Origin: Gemmataceae bacterium | GTDB taxonomy: Bacteria; Planctomycetota; Planctomycetia; Gemmatales; Gemmataceae | NCBI GenBank assembly: GCA_035939715.1 | Contig: DASZFN010000971.1 | Coordinates: 1 to 10,724 of the forward strand | Length of the DNA: 10,724 nt | Reading direction: 5' to 3' | In this document: positions 6,701-8,782 of the stretch, in pieces | Layout of the letters: every line of letters begins with the position of its first letter | Position numbering within the stretch: the stretch's first letter is position 1 | Position numbers and translations under genes: made by a program | The notes under the pieces: model-generated | Databases searched by the model: none | What the model was told of the DNA's origin: nothing | What the model saw: only the letters and a program-made list of their open reading frames with translations

Positions 6701-7327
6701 CCCGCCCTCATTACCGATGATCAAGGCAACGCCGAGCTGCCCGTCAGCTTTGCCGACTCCATCACGACGTGGCGGTTGACCGCTTCCGCCTCTTCGCGAT
6801 CTGGGCTGCTGGGCGGCGTGACTGCTCCCCTGCGAGTCTTCCAGGACTTCTTCGTCGATCTCGATCTACCCGTCACGCTGACGCAGAACGATGAAGTCGC
6901 CTTTCCGGTGGCGGTTTACAACTATCTGAAGACTCCGCAAACCGTGAAGCTGGAACTGCAGCGCGAGTCGTGGTTCGACTTGACCGATTCCGCCGACTAC
7001 ACGCGCTCCCTCGAACTTCAGCTCAATGAAGTGACGGCGGTCAAGTTCCGTATCAAGGCCCGGCGCATCGGCGCCCAGCCGCTCCTCGTGAAAGCCTCCG
7101 GCTCCAAGATGTCCGATGCCATCAAGCGGACCATCGAAGTCGTGCCCGACGGCAGCCGCGTGGAAAAGGTCGTGACCGACCGCCTGACGGGAAAGGTCAT
7201 GCAGGTGATCGAAATTCCGGAAGGCGCCATTGCGGACGCCTCCAAGATTCTCGTGAAGCTCTATCCCGGCGTCTTCAGCCAGGTCATGGAAGGGATGGAA
7301 GGCATGCTGCACATGCCGTTTGGCTGA
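3704..7327 (+). CDS. Alpha-2-macroglobulin family protein, N-terminal 1,207 codons (signal peptide, MG domains, bait-like region), ending at an in-frame TGA at the thioester Cys position
   Basis: There is a strong SD (ACGGAGG, 5 nt, ATG). The N-terminal signal peptide (MTMLAVAAVVSLS) has no lipobox Cys. MG-domain signatures are present (KILLVTDKPLYQPGQIMHIRALSLRP; GDYHIRALVGDHQTDKTVTVKKYVLPKF). The A2M hallmark REFFPETMLWQP...DSITTWRLTASASS is followed by LPVTLTQNDEVAFPVAVYNYL. The ORF ends ...GMLHMPFG-TGA, which aligns to the human A2M [11 protein letters not shown]. Confidence 0.85.
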   Translation: MLQGRFSPVTRGSLAMTMLAVAAVVSLSRPGNQGEAASEKPAAEFAMKGHETSVDVGQEFFAGTSASIRCAVRAVKSISETVPLPDSEVNVQLRAKDGQAFPLAAGKTDAGGNLDATFRVPEVPAGQYTLAVATRSTLGQQKLERTVQVKTGAKILLVTDKPLYQPGQIMHIRALSLRPFDLKPVAGSELTFEVEDSKGNKVYKRTQKTSDFGVTSIDFQLADEVNMGDYHIRALVGDHQTDKTVTVKKYVLPKFKSELSVDKRFYMPKEIIHADLQTDYFFGKPVANGKIKVVASTFDIQFREFQTWEGQTDANGHTKFEIKLPDYFVGQPLQKGDALVRLEAKVTDTADHMETISKSYTVSDQPIRVSLIPEGGRLVPGMENRIYAAAIYPDGSPAACEVNLWIGSQAKDEPFATVKTNEAGLAEFKLTPKAEQLRQGPWEQKPLEMLGGQAANAWGPKMLFDVFVQVRDGKGSSARAHAEINSDPLGENIVLRLDKAIYRAGDTLNMETRSSAGLPTVYYDVVKNGQVLLTKWLDFKDGAGHYQLDLPADLFGTLEVHAYQMLSTGEIIRDSRVIYVQPRDDLKIAIKPDKEVHVPGESGRIHFQVTDAEGKPAAAALGVLIVDEAVYALQEMQPGLEKVYFTLQEELLKPKTEVIFKPRASIDTLVRESEIPADKQQIAQVLLTSVKPKLPSRWQVAPEIERRQKVEEQVQQIGFALYSFAANQNQPVLRYDAAARRWDFDPKLLGTVLKAQYVDAAALKNPLGGLWTLQDLAKLEKEFTPNHLARAVTQARMQQVFWTFINYTNANKGNYFQNGEWSFPETVLTAAARSQRLAGWWLKDAWGKTIKLAKRDKKSEHQTGCTQLDYYDFVSAGPDGEFGTADDVKLPPMNEWQNATFWWSSAARHGQQQNWRRRDLAGRWGGGPRFRGAALGGMGGGMGGMNAPGAAAPMPMAALRMEVMDRVAKNGGAAKPDTAGGAPPATRIREFFPETMLWQPALITDDQGNAELPVSFADSITTWRLTASASSRSGLLGGVTAPLRVFQDFFVDLDLPVTLTQNDEVAFPVAVYNYLKTPQTVKLELQRESWFDLTDSADYTRSLELQLNEVTAVKFRIKARRIGAQPLLVKASGSKMSDAIKRTIEVVPDGSRVEKVVTDRLTGKVMQVIEIPEGAIADASKILVKLYPGVFSQVMEGMEGMLHMPFG
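6461..6672 (+). other. Gly/Met/Ala/Pro-rich low-complexity segment immediately upstream of the FPETxLW motif (putative bait region of the A2M)
   Basis: The translation is LAGRWGGGPRFRGAALGGMGGGMGGMNAPGAAAPMPMAALRMEVMDRVAKNGGAAKPDTAGGAPPATRIREFFPETMLW. The position corresponds to the protease-sensitive bait region of A2M family proteins. Confidence 0.5.
7325..7327 (+). other. In-frame TGA codon replacing the thioester cysteine of the A2M C-x-E-Q motif (candidate selenocysteine codon, or a nonsense lesion)
   Basis: ttt ggc TGA atg gag cag translates F G * M E Q, against the canonical F/Y G C G/L E Q. The upstream and downstream ORFs are in the same frame with no other interruption. An imperfect 13-bp hairpin at 7339-7378 starts 11 nt after the TGA. 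Confidence 0.6.
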
Positions 7328-8782
7328 ATGGAGCAGACGTCATCCGCGGCCTACCCGAACATCCTGGCCGTGGATTACCTCAAGAAGGCCCGTGTGGCCT
7401 CTCCTCAGATCCTCATGACCGCGGAGAATTACCTGAACGTCGGCTACCAGAAGCTCCTCACGTTTGAACGGCCAGGCGGCGGCTTTGACTGGTGGGGCAG
7501 CGGCCCGCCCATCGTCTGGCTCAGCGCCTACGGCTTGCAAGAATTCAACGACATGGCCAAGGTCTATCCCATCGACCGCGGCGTCATCGACCGCACCCAG
7601 CAATGGCTCATGAAGCAGCGCGAAGCGGACGGCGCCTGGTCCAACATCGGCGCCACGCACAGCGAAACGATCGCCCAGATGGGCAATCCCAAGCTGCTGC
7701 TGACCAGCTACGTGGTCTGGTCCCTGGTTGATAGCGGCATGCGCATTCCCGAGCTGGAGAAATCGATTAACTATATCCGCAAGCACGTGGACGAGGCGGG
7801 CGACAATGCCTACATCCTCGCGCTGGCTGCCAACGCGCTGGCTGCGTGGGATGCCAAGGACGACAGCACCCTCGTGGTCCTGCAAAAACTGGACAAACTC
7901 AAGGCCGCGAAGCCCGAATGGAAAGCGCTCAGCTTCCCGACGCGAGGCCAATCGCTCAGCTATGCGCACGGCGACAGCCTCACGGTGGAGACCACCGCCC
8001 TGGCCGCCCTGGCCATGTTGAAAACGGACCAGTTCACGAACAGCGTCAACGAAGCGCTGACGTTCCTGGTGAAAAGCAAGCAGTCGAACGGCACCTGGGG
8101 AAGCACGTCGGCGACGATTCTATCGCTCAAGGCCCTGGTCGCCGGCATGAGCGGCACGAAACAGGAAGGCAAGGCCGAGTTTGTTATCAAGGTGAACGGC
8201 AAGGAGGCAGGCAAAGGCGAAGTCACCGAGCAAAACGCCGACGTCCTGCAGGCGTTCGACCTCAAGGAATTCACCCAGCCCGGCCACAACGAAGTCCAGA
8301 TCGATGTGAACGGCAAGACCAACCTTATGTACCAGATCGTCGGCCGGCACTTCGAGCCCTGGAAGCTGCAGCCCGGCATTGCCGGTCAGAAGCCGCCGCT
8401 TGAGGTGACCGTCGATTATGACCGCACCAGTCTCTCGACGGCGGACCTGTTGCGCGCCAAGGCAACCTTACGCTACCATGGCGATCGGCCGACCTACATG
8501 GTGATCGTCGATCTCGGCATCGCTCCCGGTTTCACGGTGGACGCCGGCGATTTCGCGGAAATGGTGAGCCAGAAAAAAATCCAGAAGTTCAGCGTCACGG
8601 CCCGCCAGGTGACCCTCTACCTCGGCGACATCAAGCCGGGCGATGTGAAGACGTTTGAGTACAGCCTGAAGCCGAAATACCCGATCAAGGCCAAGACACC
8701 GGCGACCGTGGCATATGAGTATTACACGCCGGCCAACCAGGCGACGGCTCAACCAGTCGAGTTGGTGGTTGGCGACAGATGA
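7328..8782 (+). CDS. Alpha-2-macroglobulin family protein, C-terminal 484 codons (thioester domain plus receptor-binding/MG8-like domain), in the same frame as the upstream ORF
   Basis: It begins MEQTSSAAYPNILAVDYL, which aligns to [18 protein letters not shown] immediately after the human A2M thioester Cys. The alpha-helical TED follows (ERPGGGFDWW, ADGAWS repeats), then the C-terminal A2M_recep-like segment (PTYMVIVDLGIAPGFTV...). The frame is identical to 3704..7324. The ATG abuts the TGA with no independent SD. The stop is TGA at 8780-8782. Confidence 0.85.
   Translation: MEQTSSAAYPNILAVDYLKKARVASPQILMTAENYLNVGYQKLLTFERPGGGFDWWGSGPPIVWLSAYGLQEFNDMAKVYPIDRGVIDRTQQWLMKQREADGAWSNIGATHSETIAQMGNPKLLLTSYVVWSLVDSGMRIPELEKSINYIRKHVDEAGDNAYILALAANALAAWDAKDDSTLVVLQKLDKLKAAKPEWKALSFPTRGQSLSYAHGDSLTVETTALAALAMLKTDQFTNSVNEALTFLVKSKQSNGTWGSTSATILSLKALVAGMSGTKQEGKAEFVIKVNGKEAGKGEVTEQNADVLQAFDLKEFTQPGHNEVQIDVNGKTNLMYQIVGRHFEPWKLQPGIAGQKPPLEVTVDYDRTSLSTADLLRAKATLRYHGDRPTYMVIVDLGIAPGFTVDAGDFAEMVSQKKIQKFSVTARQVTLYLGDIKPGDVKTFEYSLKPKYPIKAKTPATVAYEYYTPANQATAQPVELVVGDR

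Follow-up and report, generated by a model that had tools for sequence, protein, structure and literature searches.

Type I bacterial alpha-2-macroglobulins (A2Ms), such as ECAM/YfhM of E. coli and the A2M of Salmonella, are exported protease traps made of multiple MG domains, with a bait region and a thioester domain (TED) that carries an x-E-Q motif (PMC4498604, PMC3328433, PMC5764988). Here, we describe a gene with the same features in a 10,724-nucleotide stretch of DNA from a Gemmataceae bacterium (assembly GCA_035939715.1, contig DASZFN010000971.1, positions 1 to 10,724 of the forward strand), hereafter the window. The nucleophile codon, which is a Cys codon in the type I genes, is an in-frame UGA in the window (7325-7327). 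Sequence comparisons indicate that this UGA is probably recoded as selenocysteine (Sec) within a single A2M gene.

The window protein also differs from type I A2Ms in that its N-terminal segment has no lipobox Cys, that it carries an A2M_recep domain, and that its closest relatives among solved structures are eukaryotic A2ML1, CD109, TEP1, and A2M. No ECAM-type entry was found among its 43 PDB matches at E ≤ 1e-5. Most of its Pfam domain set is shared with the eukaryotic thioester proteins (A2M, A2ML1, CD109, insect TEP1, and complement C3/C4). In contrast to these, the window protein is bacterial, would have Sec(UGA)-M-E-Q where they have G-C-G-E-Q, and carries a ~330-aa insert without a Pfam match ahead of the A2M (MG7) domain. 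Type II bacterial A2Ms, exemplified by Pseudomonas MagD, likewise have an A2M scaffold without a Cys codon at the thioester site (PMC5764988, PMC3735191). However, MagD-type proteins lack the whole CXEQ motif, whereas the window family keeps the E-Q and the TED motif and has a conserved UGA in place of the Cys. Rather than being absent or degenerate, as in type II, x-E-Q and the TSSxxYPN that follows it are invariant among the sequences that we compared.

Bacterial selenoprotein genes, such as that of formate dehydrogenase FdhA (PMC13188914), are the other described system to which this locus can be compared. In both, the UGA pairs with a Cys of homologous proteins, a stem-loop begins ~11 nt further on, and Sec and Cys forms are interleaved. 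The window differs in that its UGA lies at an acyl-transfer (thioester) site. It also differs in its selenocysteine insertion sequence (SECIS), as the hairpin of its clade lacks the G[G/U] motif in its 14-nt loop and is followed by an invariant second hairpin.

An A2M Gene with One Internal UGA

A single frame of 1,693 codons on the forward strand (3704-8782) encodes a complete A2M, as judged from the window sequence and its Pfam matches. The frame contains two stops only, at 7325 and 8780, both of them TGA. Re-reading the sequence bore out what a first-pass annotation of this DNA had claimed, namely that the open reading frames (ORFs) 3704..7324 and 7328..8782 lie in the same frame, that the TGA at 7325-7327 is their sole separator, and that the rest of the gene is free of other stops. 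The Pfam matches were MG2 (4.7e-25), MG3 (1.2e-6), A2M_BRD (2.2e-11), and A2M (3.8e-21) in the N-terminal part (N part) and TED_complement (5.7e-38) and A2M_recep (3.3e-12) in the C-terminal part (C part). The window protein, therefore, has the domain set of the A2M/TEP superfamily, which consists of MG domains, a bait-region domain, A2M/MG7, a TED, and a C-terminal receptor-binding domain. The window A2M protein is not covered by any NCBIfam model.

Translation across the site reads ...MLHMPFG*MEQTSSAAYPNILAVDYL, where the asterisk stands for the TGA. The TGA was replaced by X and the protein was used as a phmmer query against the PDB, which paired the X with the GCGEQ Cys of human A2ML1 (7q1y) and of CD109. 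This agrees with the earlier placement of the TGA at the thioester Cys. TEP1, A2M, and C3 were likewise among the matches of the substituted protein. The best matches to solved structures had E values of 8e-24 to 1e-9, and their alignments cross the thioester motif and the whole TED. The Glu and Gln of the C-x-E-Q motif are encoded at 7331-7336, so that the reactive Gln (CAG, 7334-7336) is retained, as the first-pass annotation had noted. The Cys position is the UGA, and the motif is complete only if this codon is read as Sec or Cys.

A reassigned genetic code, which had been thought unlikely from the outset, was rejected because TGA is the ordinary stop of the A2M gene itself and of two other ORFs in the window.

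Occurrence and Conservation of the UGA Form

The DNA of 75 related loci (numbered with the prefix L) was compared, comprising 50 metagenome loci and 25 species-representative genomes, all of the latter being metagenome-assembled genomes (MAGs) of Gemmataceae, Gemmatales, or Planctomycetota. An alignment of orthologues, which had been proposed as a check, showed either TGA (36 loci) or TGC/TGT (25 loci) at the site and never TAA or TAG. The terminal stops of these A2M genes are a free mixture of TAA, TAG, and TGA. Using a protein search around the site, we found that 57 of the best 120 homologues cross the site with C[FML]EQ, while 62 are proteins of ~483 aa that are 75-99% identical and begin with MEQ(T/A)SS. 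The short proteins are the same split, a product of gene callers. The number of distinct TGA sequences was 32 in the Gemmataceae clade and 42 overall when distant relatives (38-51% identical) are included.

A complete gene was present in 11 loci, and each of these has an uninterrupted upstream frame of ~1,200-1,500 codons. Synonymous divergence (dS) among the TGA-type genes was 0.3-1.8, and the ratio of nonsynonymous to synonymous divergence (dN/dS) against other TGA-type genes was 0.10-0.32 for the N part and 0.05-0.29 for the C part. These values indicate that both halves of the TGA-type A2M are under purifying selection, and coding conservation is thus found on both sides of the UGA, as is expected of bacterial selenoproteins. 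TGC or TGT occupies the same alignment column as the UGA, which is the arrangement expected of a Sec/Cys pair. Two loci, L007 (TGA) and L063 (TGT), even have identical peptides flanking the site. The persistence of the TGA in dozens of diverged relatives makes selenocysteine its most likely reading. The first-pass proposal of Sec at the thioester Cys is supported by the Cys in the closest homologues, by the conservation of TGA and no other stop, and by selection on both sides of the site, as well as by the TGA-linked hairpin and the interleaving of Sec and Cys forms described below.

An exhaustive HMMER search with the C part was made against 1.84 billion cluster representatives (50%-identity clusters). 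About 25-31 of the 150 best-matching representatives are 447-485 aa long and begin at the site or no more than ~30 residues past it. Ten of these short-start representatives, 38-51% identical to the window, were looked up, and all ten are split at the site. In all nine for which DNA was available, the codon at the Cys position is TGA (G*MEQ or G*FEQ), and an A2M N part lies in frame upstream; the tenth, P0126, is known from adjacent gene calls alone (4893 and 4894). When one distant relative served as the query, 99 of about 110 best matches started at the site or at most ~40 residues after it, and only 8 crossed it with CxEQ. The TGA form, on this sequence evidence, appears to dominate a large Planctomycetota A2M subfamily, the genes of which are now annotated as two separate "hypothetical" or "YfaS" genes. 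Four of the distant relatives carry the source name "Planctomycetes bacterium", and the other names are "Gemmataceae bacterium" and, once, "Chloroflexi bacterium". The organisms are described as soil Planctomycetes. In the MAG labelled Chloroflexi (L096; GCA_011192195.1, DUEH01000233.1), the TGA was verified and is followed by a canonical SECIS-type hairpin. Either the family reaches beyond Planctomycetota or this contig was mis-binned.

In a rough neighbour-joining tree of the C parts, U and C forms were interleaved, which implies several switches between TGA and TGY. Interleaved Sec and Cys forms are the usual pattern of Sec/Cys interchange.

Other observations were made on single loci. One contig (L045) carries tandem A2M genes, a Cys-type gene (CFEQ, 4495) followed by a TGA-type gene (UMEQ, 9998). 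In two distant TGA-type loci (L087:5658-9967 and L088:6082-9991), a gene for an extracytoplasmic function (ECF) sigma-70 factor lies directly upstream of the A2M gene, and the N part of L087 opens with a zf-HC2 (anti-sigma) domain. This context suggests a regulated or membrane-anchored variant. The Cys-type loci of the "MFD" MAGs (L003, L014, L015, L019, L023, and L024) have upstream frames broken after 25-589 codons. These MAGs are presumably long-read assemblies, and the breaks are likely homopolymer frameshift errors, which would explain why many "full-coverage" protein matches are just 650-850 aa long.

RNA Structure Downstream of the UGA

The first-pass annotation had placed a hairpin at 7339-7378, beginning 11 nt after the UGA, and RNAfold confirmed it with its 14-nt loop. 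This structure (hairpin 1) has a 10-bp core, AUCCGCGGCC paired with GGCCGUGGAU, with flanking pairs and a minimum free energy (MFE) of −28.3 kcal/mol. Its z score was −2.4 against dinucleotide shuffles. A stricter null, consisting of 300 synonymous recodings of each sequence that preserve the peptide and follow the codon usage of the gene itself, gave z = −3.1 for the window. In all 32 distinct TGA sequences of the Gemmataceae clade, a hairpin starts 12-17 nt after the UGA. Relative to the recodings, these sequences had a mean z of −2.6 (32 of 32 negative), compared to −0.6 for Cys-type loci. The TGA-type genes thus carry a stable stem-loop after the UGA beyond what the peptide requires, as selenoprotein genes do. 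Hairpin 1 occurs in two pairing registers, A in 21 sequences and B, shifted by 3 nt, in 11. Taking either register, energies were −14.7 to −23.5 kcal/mol in TGA sequences and +11.5 to −15.6 kcal/mol in Cys-type loci. Compensatory changes were observed in the stem, where alignment columns 18 and 51 form GC in 9, AU in 8, and GU in 6 sequences, and where L026 has a compensatory change from C-G to G-C.

A second, smaller hairpin (hairpin 2) follows. All 32 TGA sequences have the same stem, four synonymous sites included, and only 2 of 24 Cys-type loci (L024 and L063) have it intact. The hairpin encodes Ala-Arg-Val-Ala, and its nucleotides are invariant across the TGA clade, with the Arg codon CGT included. 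The motif was found nowhere else when 766 kb of related DNA were searched. In the TGA clade, the whole-gene minimum of synonymous diversity lies at codons +12 to +23 (0.167 vs. ~0.37), and the Cys clade showed no such dip at these codons. Most Cys-type relatives have neither hairpin. An exception to this, and to the energy range of the Cys-type loci, is the TGT locus L063, sister to the TGA locus L007. It retains all of the structure and, from its sequence, looks like a recent Sec-to-Cys switch.

Published rules for bacterial SECIS elements call for an apical loop of 3-9 nt with a G at position 1 or 2, an upper stem of 4-16 bp, a distance of 16-37 nt from UGA to loop, and an MFE ≤ −7.5 kcal/mol (PMC13188914). 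Scanning suboptimal structures with these rules, we found that hairpin 1 passes those for stem (10 bp), spacing (27 nt), and energy. It fails those for loop size and for the G, as is considered below. Five distant TGA relatives (L084, L085, L086, L088, and L096) have hairpins that satisfy all of the published constraints. L086 and L096, for example, have a hairpin of −8.3 kcal/mol in which a 7-bp stem carries a loop of GGU or GGC, 17 nt after the UGA.

Alternative Readings and the Evidence on Each

Several observations weigh against Sec decoding, and some of them bear on an alternative reading as well. Frame breaks were found in some short TGA-type metagenome contigs, 92-830 codons 5′ of the site in L044, L055, L057, L071, and L072 and 43-226 codons 3′ of it in L064 and L071. 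These contigs are either assembly errors or decayed copies. Such breaks would also be in line with the window TGA itself being an error of sequencing or assembly, or a nonsense mutation that inactivated the gene recently, for which one base change from TGC or TGT suffices. Error and recent lesion, both raised by the first-pass annotation, are refuted, however, because an identical 484-aa C part with the preceding TGA is present on six independently assembled JGI metagenome contigs and because 42 distinct TGA sequences exist. The latter extend down to 38% identity, with dS up to 1.8 and dN/dS of 0.05-0.3 on both sides of the site. We consider the probability of an error or a recent lesion to be negligible.

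The codon directly after the TGA is ATG in 33 of the 36 TGA loci of the Gemmataceae clade, which is also what a stop followed by a restart would favour. The UGA would then be a real stop in a conserved two-gene locus encoding a ~1,207-aa MG-domain protein and a separately initiated ~484-aa protein with the TED and receptor-binding domain. Their products may assemble non-covalently, and neither a thioester nor a selenoester would form. Every gene caller splits the locus at this point, and thioester-less bacterial A2Ms exist (type II, MagD; PMC5764988). Nevertheless, a start codon does not follow the stop in all members. The exceptions in the clade are L001 (TTT), L007 (TTC), and L057 (CTG), and distant relatives mostly have TTC or TTT (L087, L088, L091, L092, L094, and L096); L089, L093, and L095 also have TTT, TTC, or CTG there. 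A Phe or Leu (CTG) codon, and no start codon, follows the TGA in 11 of the 42 distinct TGA sequences, which rules out reinitiation at the adjacent ATG as the general mechanism. In genes without the ATG, the residues up to the first usable start (FEQTSSxxYPN...) are conserved, and this stretch is therefore translated.

Further observations count against two genes. No Shine-Dalgarno-like sequence was found before the window ATG (7328), and initiation of the supposed downstream gene would be hindered, not helped, by the stable hairpin that covers its codons 4-18. The internal stop is always TGA, whereas the terminal stops vary, and the Glu-Gln of the thioester motif is invariant. Interchange with Cys codons would, moreover, mean that genes had fused and split several times at precisely the same codon. 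We regard a two-gene locus as very unlikely. Apart from this question, 83% of the U forms in the Gemmataceae set have Met after the site and 95% of the C forms have Phe, while distant U forms mostly have Phe. This bias may reflect UGA-A vs. UGA-U termination context, a fail-safe restart, or plain ancestry.

Regarding the RNA, hairpin 1 is non-canonical because its 14-nt loop (UACCCGAACAUCCU) has no G at position 1 or 2, and this failure of the loop rules is shared by the window with its Gemmataceae clade. The loop of hairpin 2 is suitable (5 nt, G then U), but this hairpin reaches only −6.1 kcal/mol and is 63 nt away from the UGA. A subset of accepted selenoprotein genes also fails the SECIS model (PMC13188914). 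Strict covariation was modest (2 pairs with double changes), and the RNAalifold consensus consisted of hairpin 2 alone, hairpin 1 being missed because of its two registers. The excess of structure over synonymous recodings was uneven in the distant relatives (z of +0.25 to −2.8, 96 nt).

Sec machinery was not detected near the gene. No tRNA-Sec was found in the fetched flanks (up to 10 kb) using ARAGORN on 54 loci and Rfam on 7, and tblastn searches with the E. coli proteins found no SelA, SelB, or SelD in ~90 loci (~0.9 Mb, flanks only). A 94-nt "tRNA-Thr (agt)" reported by ARAGORN (L007:274-367) was rejected as a false positive and not a tRNA-Sec, as it had no Rfam support and is ordinary sequence. 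Complete sets of Sec-insertion genes have been reported for Gemmata obscuriglobus, a member of Gemmataceae, and for Isosphaera pallida (PMC4807772).

These results on loop and machinery would also fit readthrough of the UGA without Sec, stimulated by the hairpin and carried out by a near-cognate tRNA (Trp or Cys) or by a dedicated UGA-reading tRNA, such as a tRNA-Sec-like molecule charged with Cys. Insertion of Cys would yield a normal thioester A2M and, alongside it, a truncated N-terminal product. Translation past the UGA and the TGA-linked hairpin fit this equally, the clade hairpin is unlike the canonical loop bound by SelB, and the flanks searched held no Sec machinery. On the other hand, programmed UGA readthrough without Sec is rare in bacteria. 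A UGA at an essential nucleophilic Cys, with repeated switches between TGA and TGC/TGT, is the signature of a Sec/Cys pair, five distant TGA relatives have canonical SECIS-type hairpins, and Sec decoding exists in Gemmataceae (PMC4807772). Readthrough without Sec is, in our view, unlikely.

Proposed Product and Mechanism

If the UGA is read as Sec, the product would be a eukaryote-like A2M of ~1,690 residues that is secreted or periplasmic. SelB and Sec-tRNA(Sec) would read the UGA, guided by the downstream hairpin or hairpins, and the full-length protein of ~185 kDa would carry Sec in G-U-M-E-Q (...MPFG-U-MEQTSSAAYPNILAVDYLK), at the position that the thioester Cys occupies in all characterised members of the family. 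That the inserted residue would be Sec is inferred from the established behaviour of bacterial Sec decoding. Hairpin 2 may be the real SelB contact, brought near the UGA by hairpin 1. We speculate that, with hairpin 1 folded, hairpin 2 would be separated from the UGA by only ~20 unpaired nt.

The selenol would attack the Gln side chain to form an internal selenoester, and upon cleavage of the bait, this ester would acylate lysines of the protease faster than a thioester does. We infer this step from the chemistry of A2M and C3 and from the reactivity of selenoesters in peptide ligation. A selenoester is higher in energy than a thioester, which makes its spontaneous formation from Gln uncertain. 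Sec may have a role other than ester formation here. Our broader proposal is that Planctomycetota, and at least one MAG labelled Chloroflexi, make wide use of a non-redox Sec as the nucleophile of an internal selenoester "warhead" in a macroglobulin protease trap, with a non-canonical two-hairpin SECIS in the Gemmataceae clade in which the long hairpin brings the invariant mini-hairpin with its G-U loop near the ribosome. We offer it tentatively, as somewhat less probable than its opposite.

Feature Positions and Neighbouring Genes

The features of the window are collected in Table 1.

Table 1. Positions of the A2M gene parts, the candidate selenocysteine codon, and the downstream hairpins in the window.
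Feature	Position	Strand	Remarks
N-terminal 1,207 codons of the A2M gene	3704..7324	+	Signal/anchor, MG2, MG3, bait-region domain, A2M (MG7); ends ...MPFG before the TGA
N-terminal hydrophobic segment (signal or anchor)	aa 14-27, nt 3743-3784	+	
Gly/Met/Ala/Pro-rich stretch, candidate flexible bait segment	6467..6655, aa ~922-984	+	End of the long Pfam-less insert
In-frame TGA, candidate selenocysteine codon	7325..7327	+	Position of the thioester Cys of CxEQ
Met-Glu-Gln codons, rest of the thioester motif	7328..7336	+	Reactive Gln CAG 7334-7336; EQ kept in every TGA-type sequence
Hairpin 1, candidate non-canonical SECIS	7337..7381	+	Core 7342-7351 with 7366-7375, 14-nt loop 7352-7365, flanking pairs
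Hairpin 2, GGCC-CGUGU-GGCC	7387..7399	+	4-bp stem, 5-nt loop, GU at loop positions 2-3
C-terminal 484 codons, TED and receptor-binding domain	7328..8782	+	Ordinary TGA stop 8780-8782

No Pfam match was obtained for the insert between A2M_BRD and A2M (MG7) (aa ~660-990, window ~5680-6680). The Gly/Met/Ala/Pro-rich stretch at its end is a candidate for the flexible bait segment. Three homologues (P0036, P0040, and P0073) carry a precomputed match to PF08334 (type II secretion protein G), and the sequence SAGPDGEFGTADDV within the insert (around nt 6330-6370) resembles what we take to be a pseudopilin motif.

Small genes lie on the opposite strand 3′ of the A2M gene (8800-10226, − strand), namely a 135-aa ORF with a weak retropepsin-like match, DUF5678, DUF433, and a 105-aa ORF. 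Their counterpart in a related locus is L078:7277-8703, and beyond the window-equivalent region, L078 carries genes for EF-G and MsrA. We found no gene neighbour of the TGA-type A2M that is conserved outside the closest relatives, and the small opposite-strand genes are likewise kept only there.

Novelty and Implications

In agreement with the first-pass annotation, which knew of no Sec-containing A2M or TEP protein, our literature search found no macroglobulin, A2M, or thioester selenoprotein. No macroglobulin selenoprotein appears in the 2026 review of the inventory (PMC13188914) or, among the 111 families of BSepDB, in the main text of that paper (PMC13326102). Nor is one mentioned in the deep-Sep, GOS, and Sargasso Sea selenoprotein papers. 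A Sec-containing A2M would constitute an undescribed selenoprotein family that is widespread and unannotated.

If the proposal is true, this would be the first natural selenoester protein and would come with a new structural class of bacterial SECIS. To our knowledge, all or nearly all known Sec residues are redox-active. Sec at an acyl-transfer site would extend the chemistry served by genetically encoded selenium beyond redox catalysis, and it raises the question of what benefit a protease trap would have from a more reactive ester. Hundreds of entries annotated as two unrelated "hypothetical" or "YfaS" proteins would represent one gene. For selenoprotein inventories and SECIS models, this would add a large Planctomycetota family that partly departs from the current SECIS consensus.

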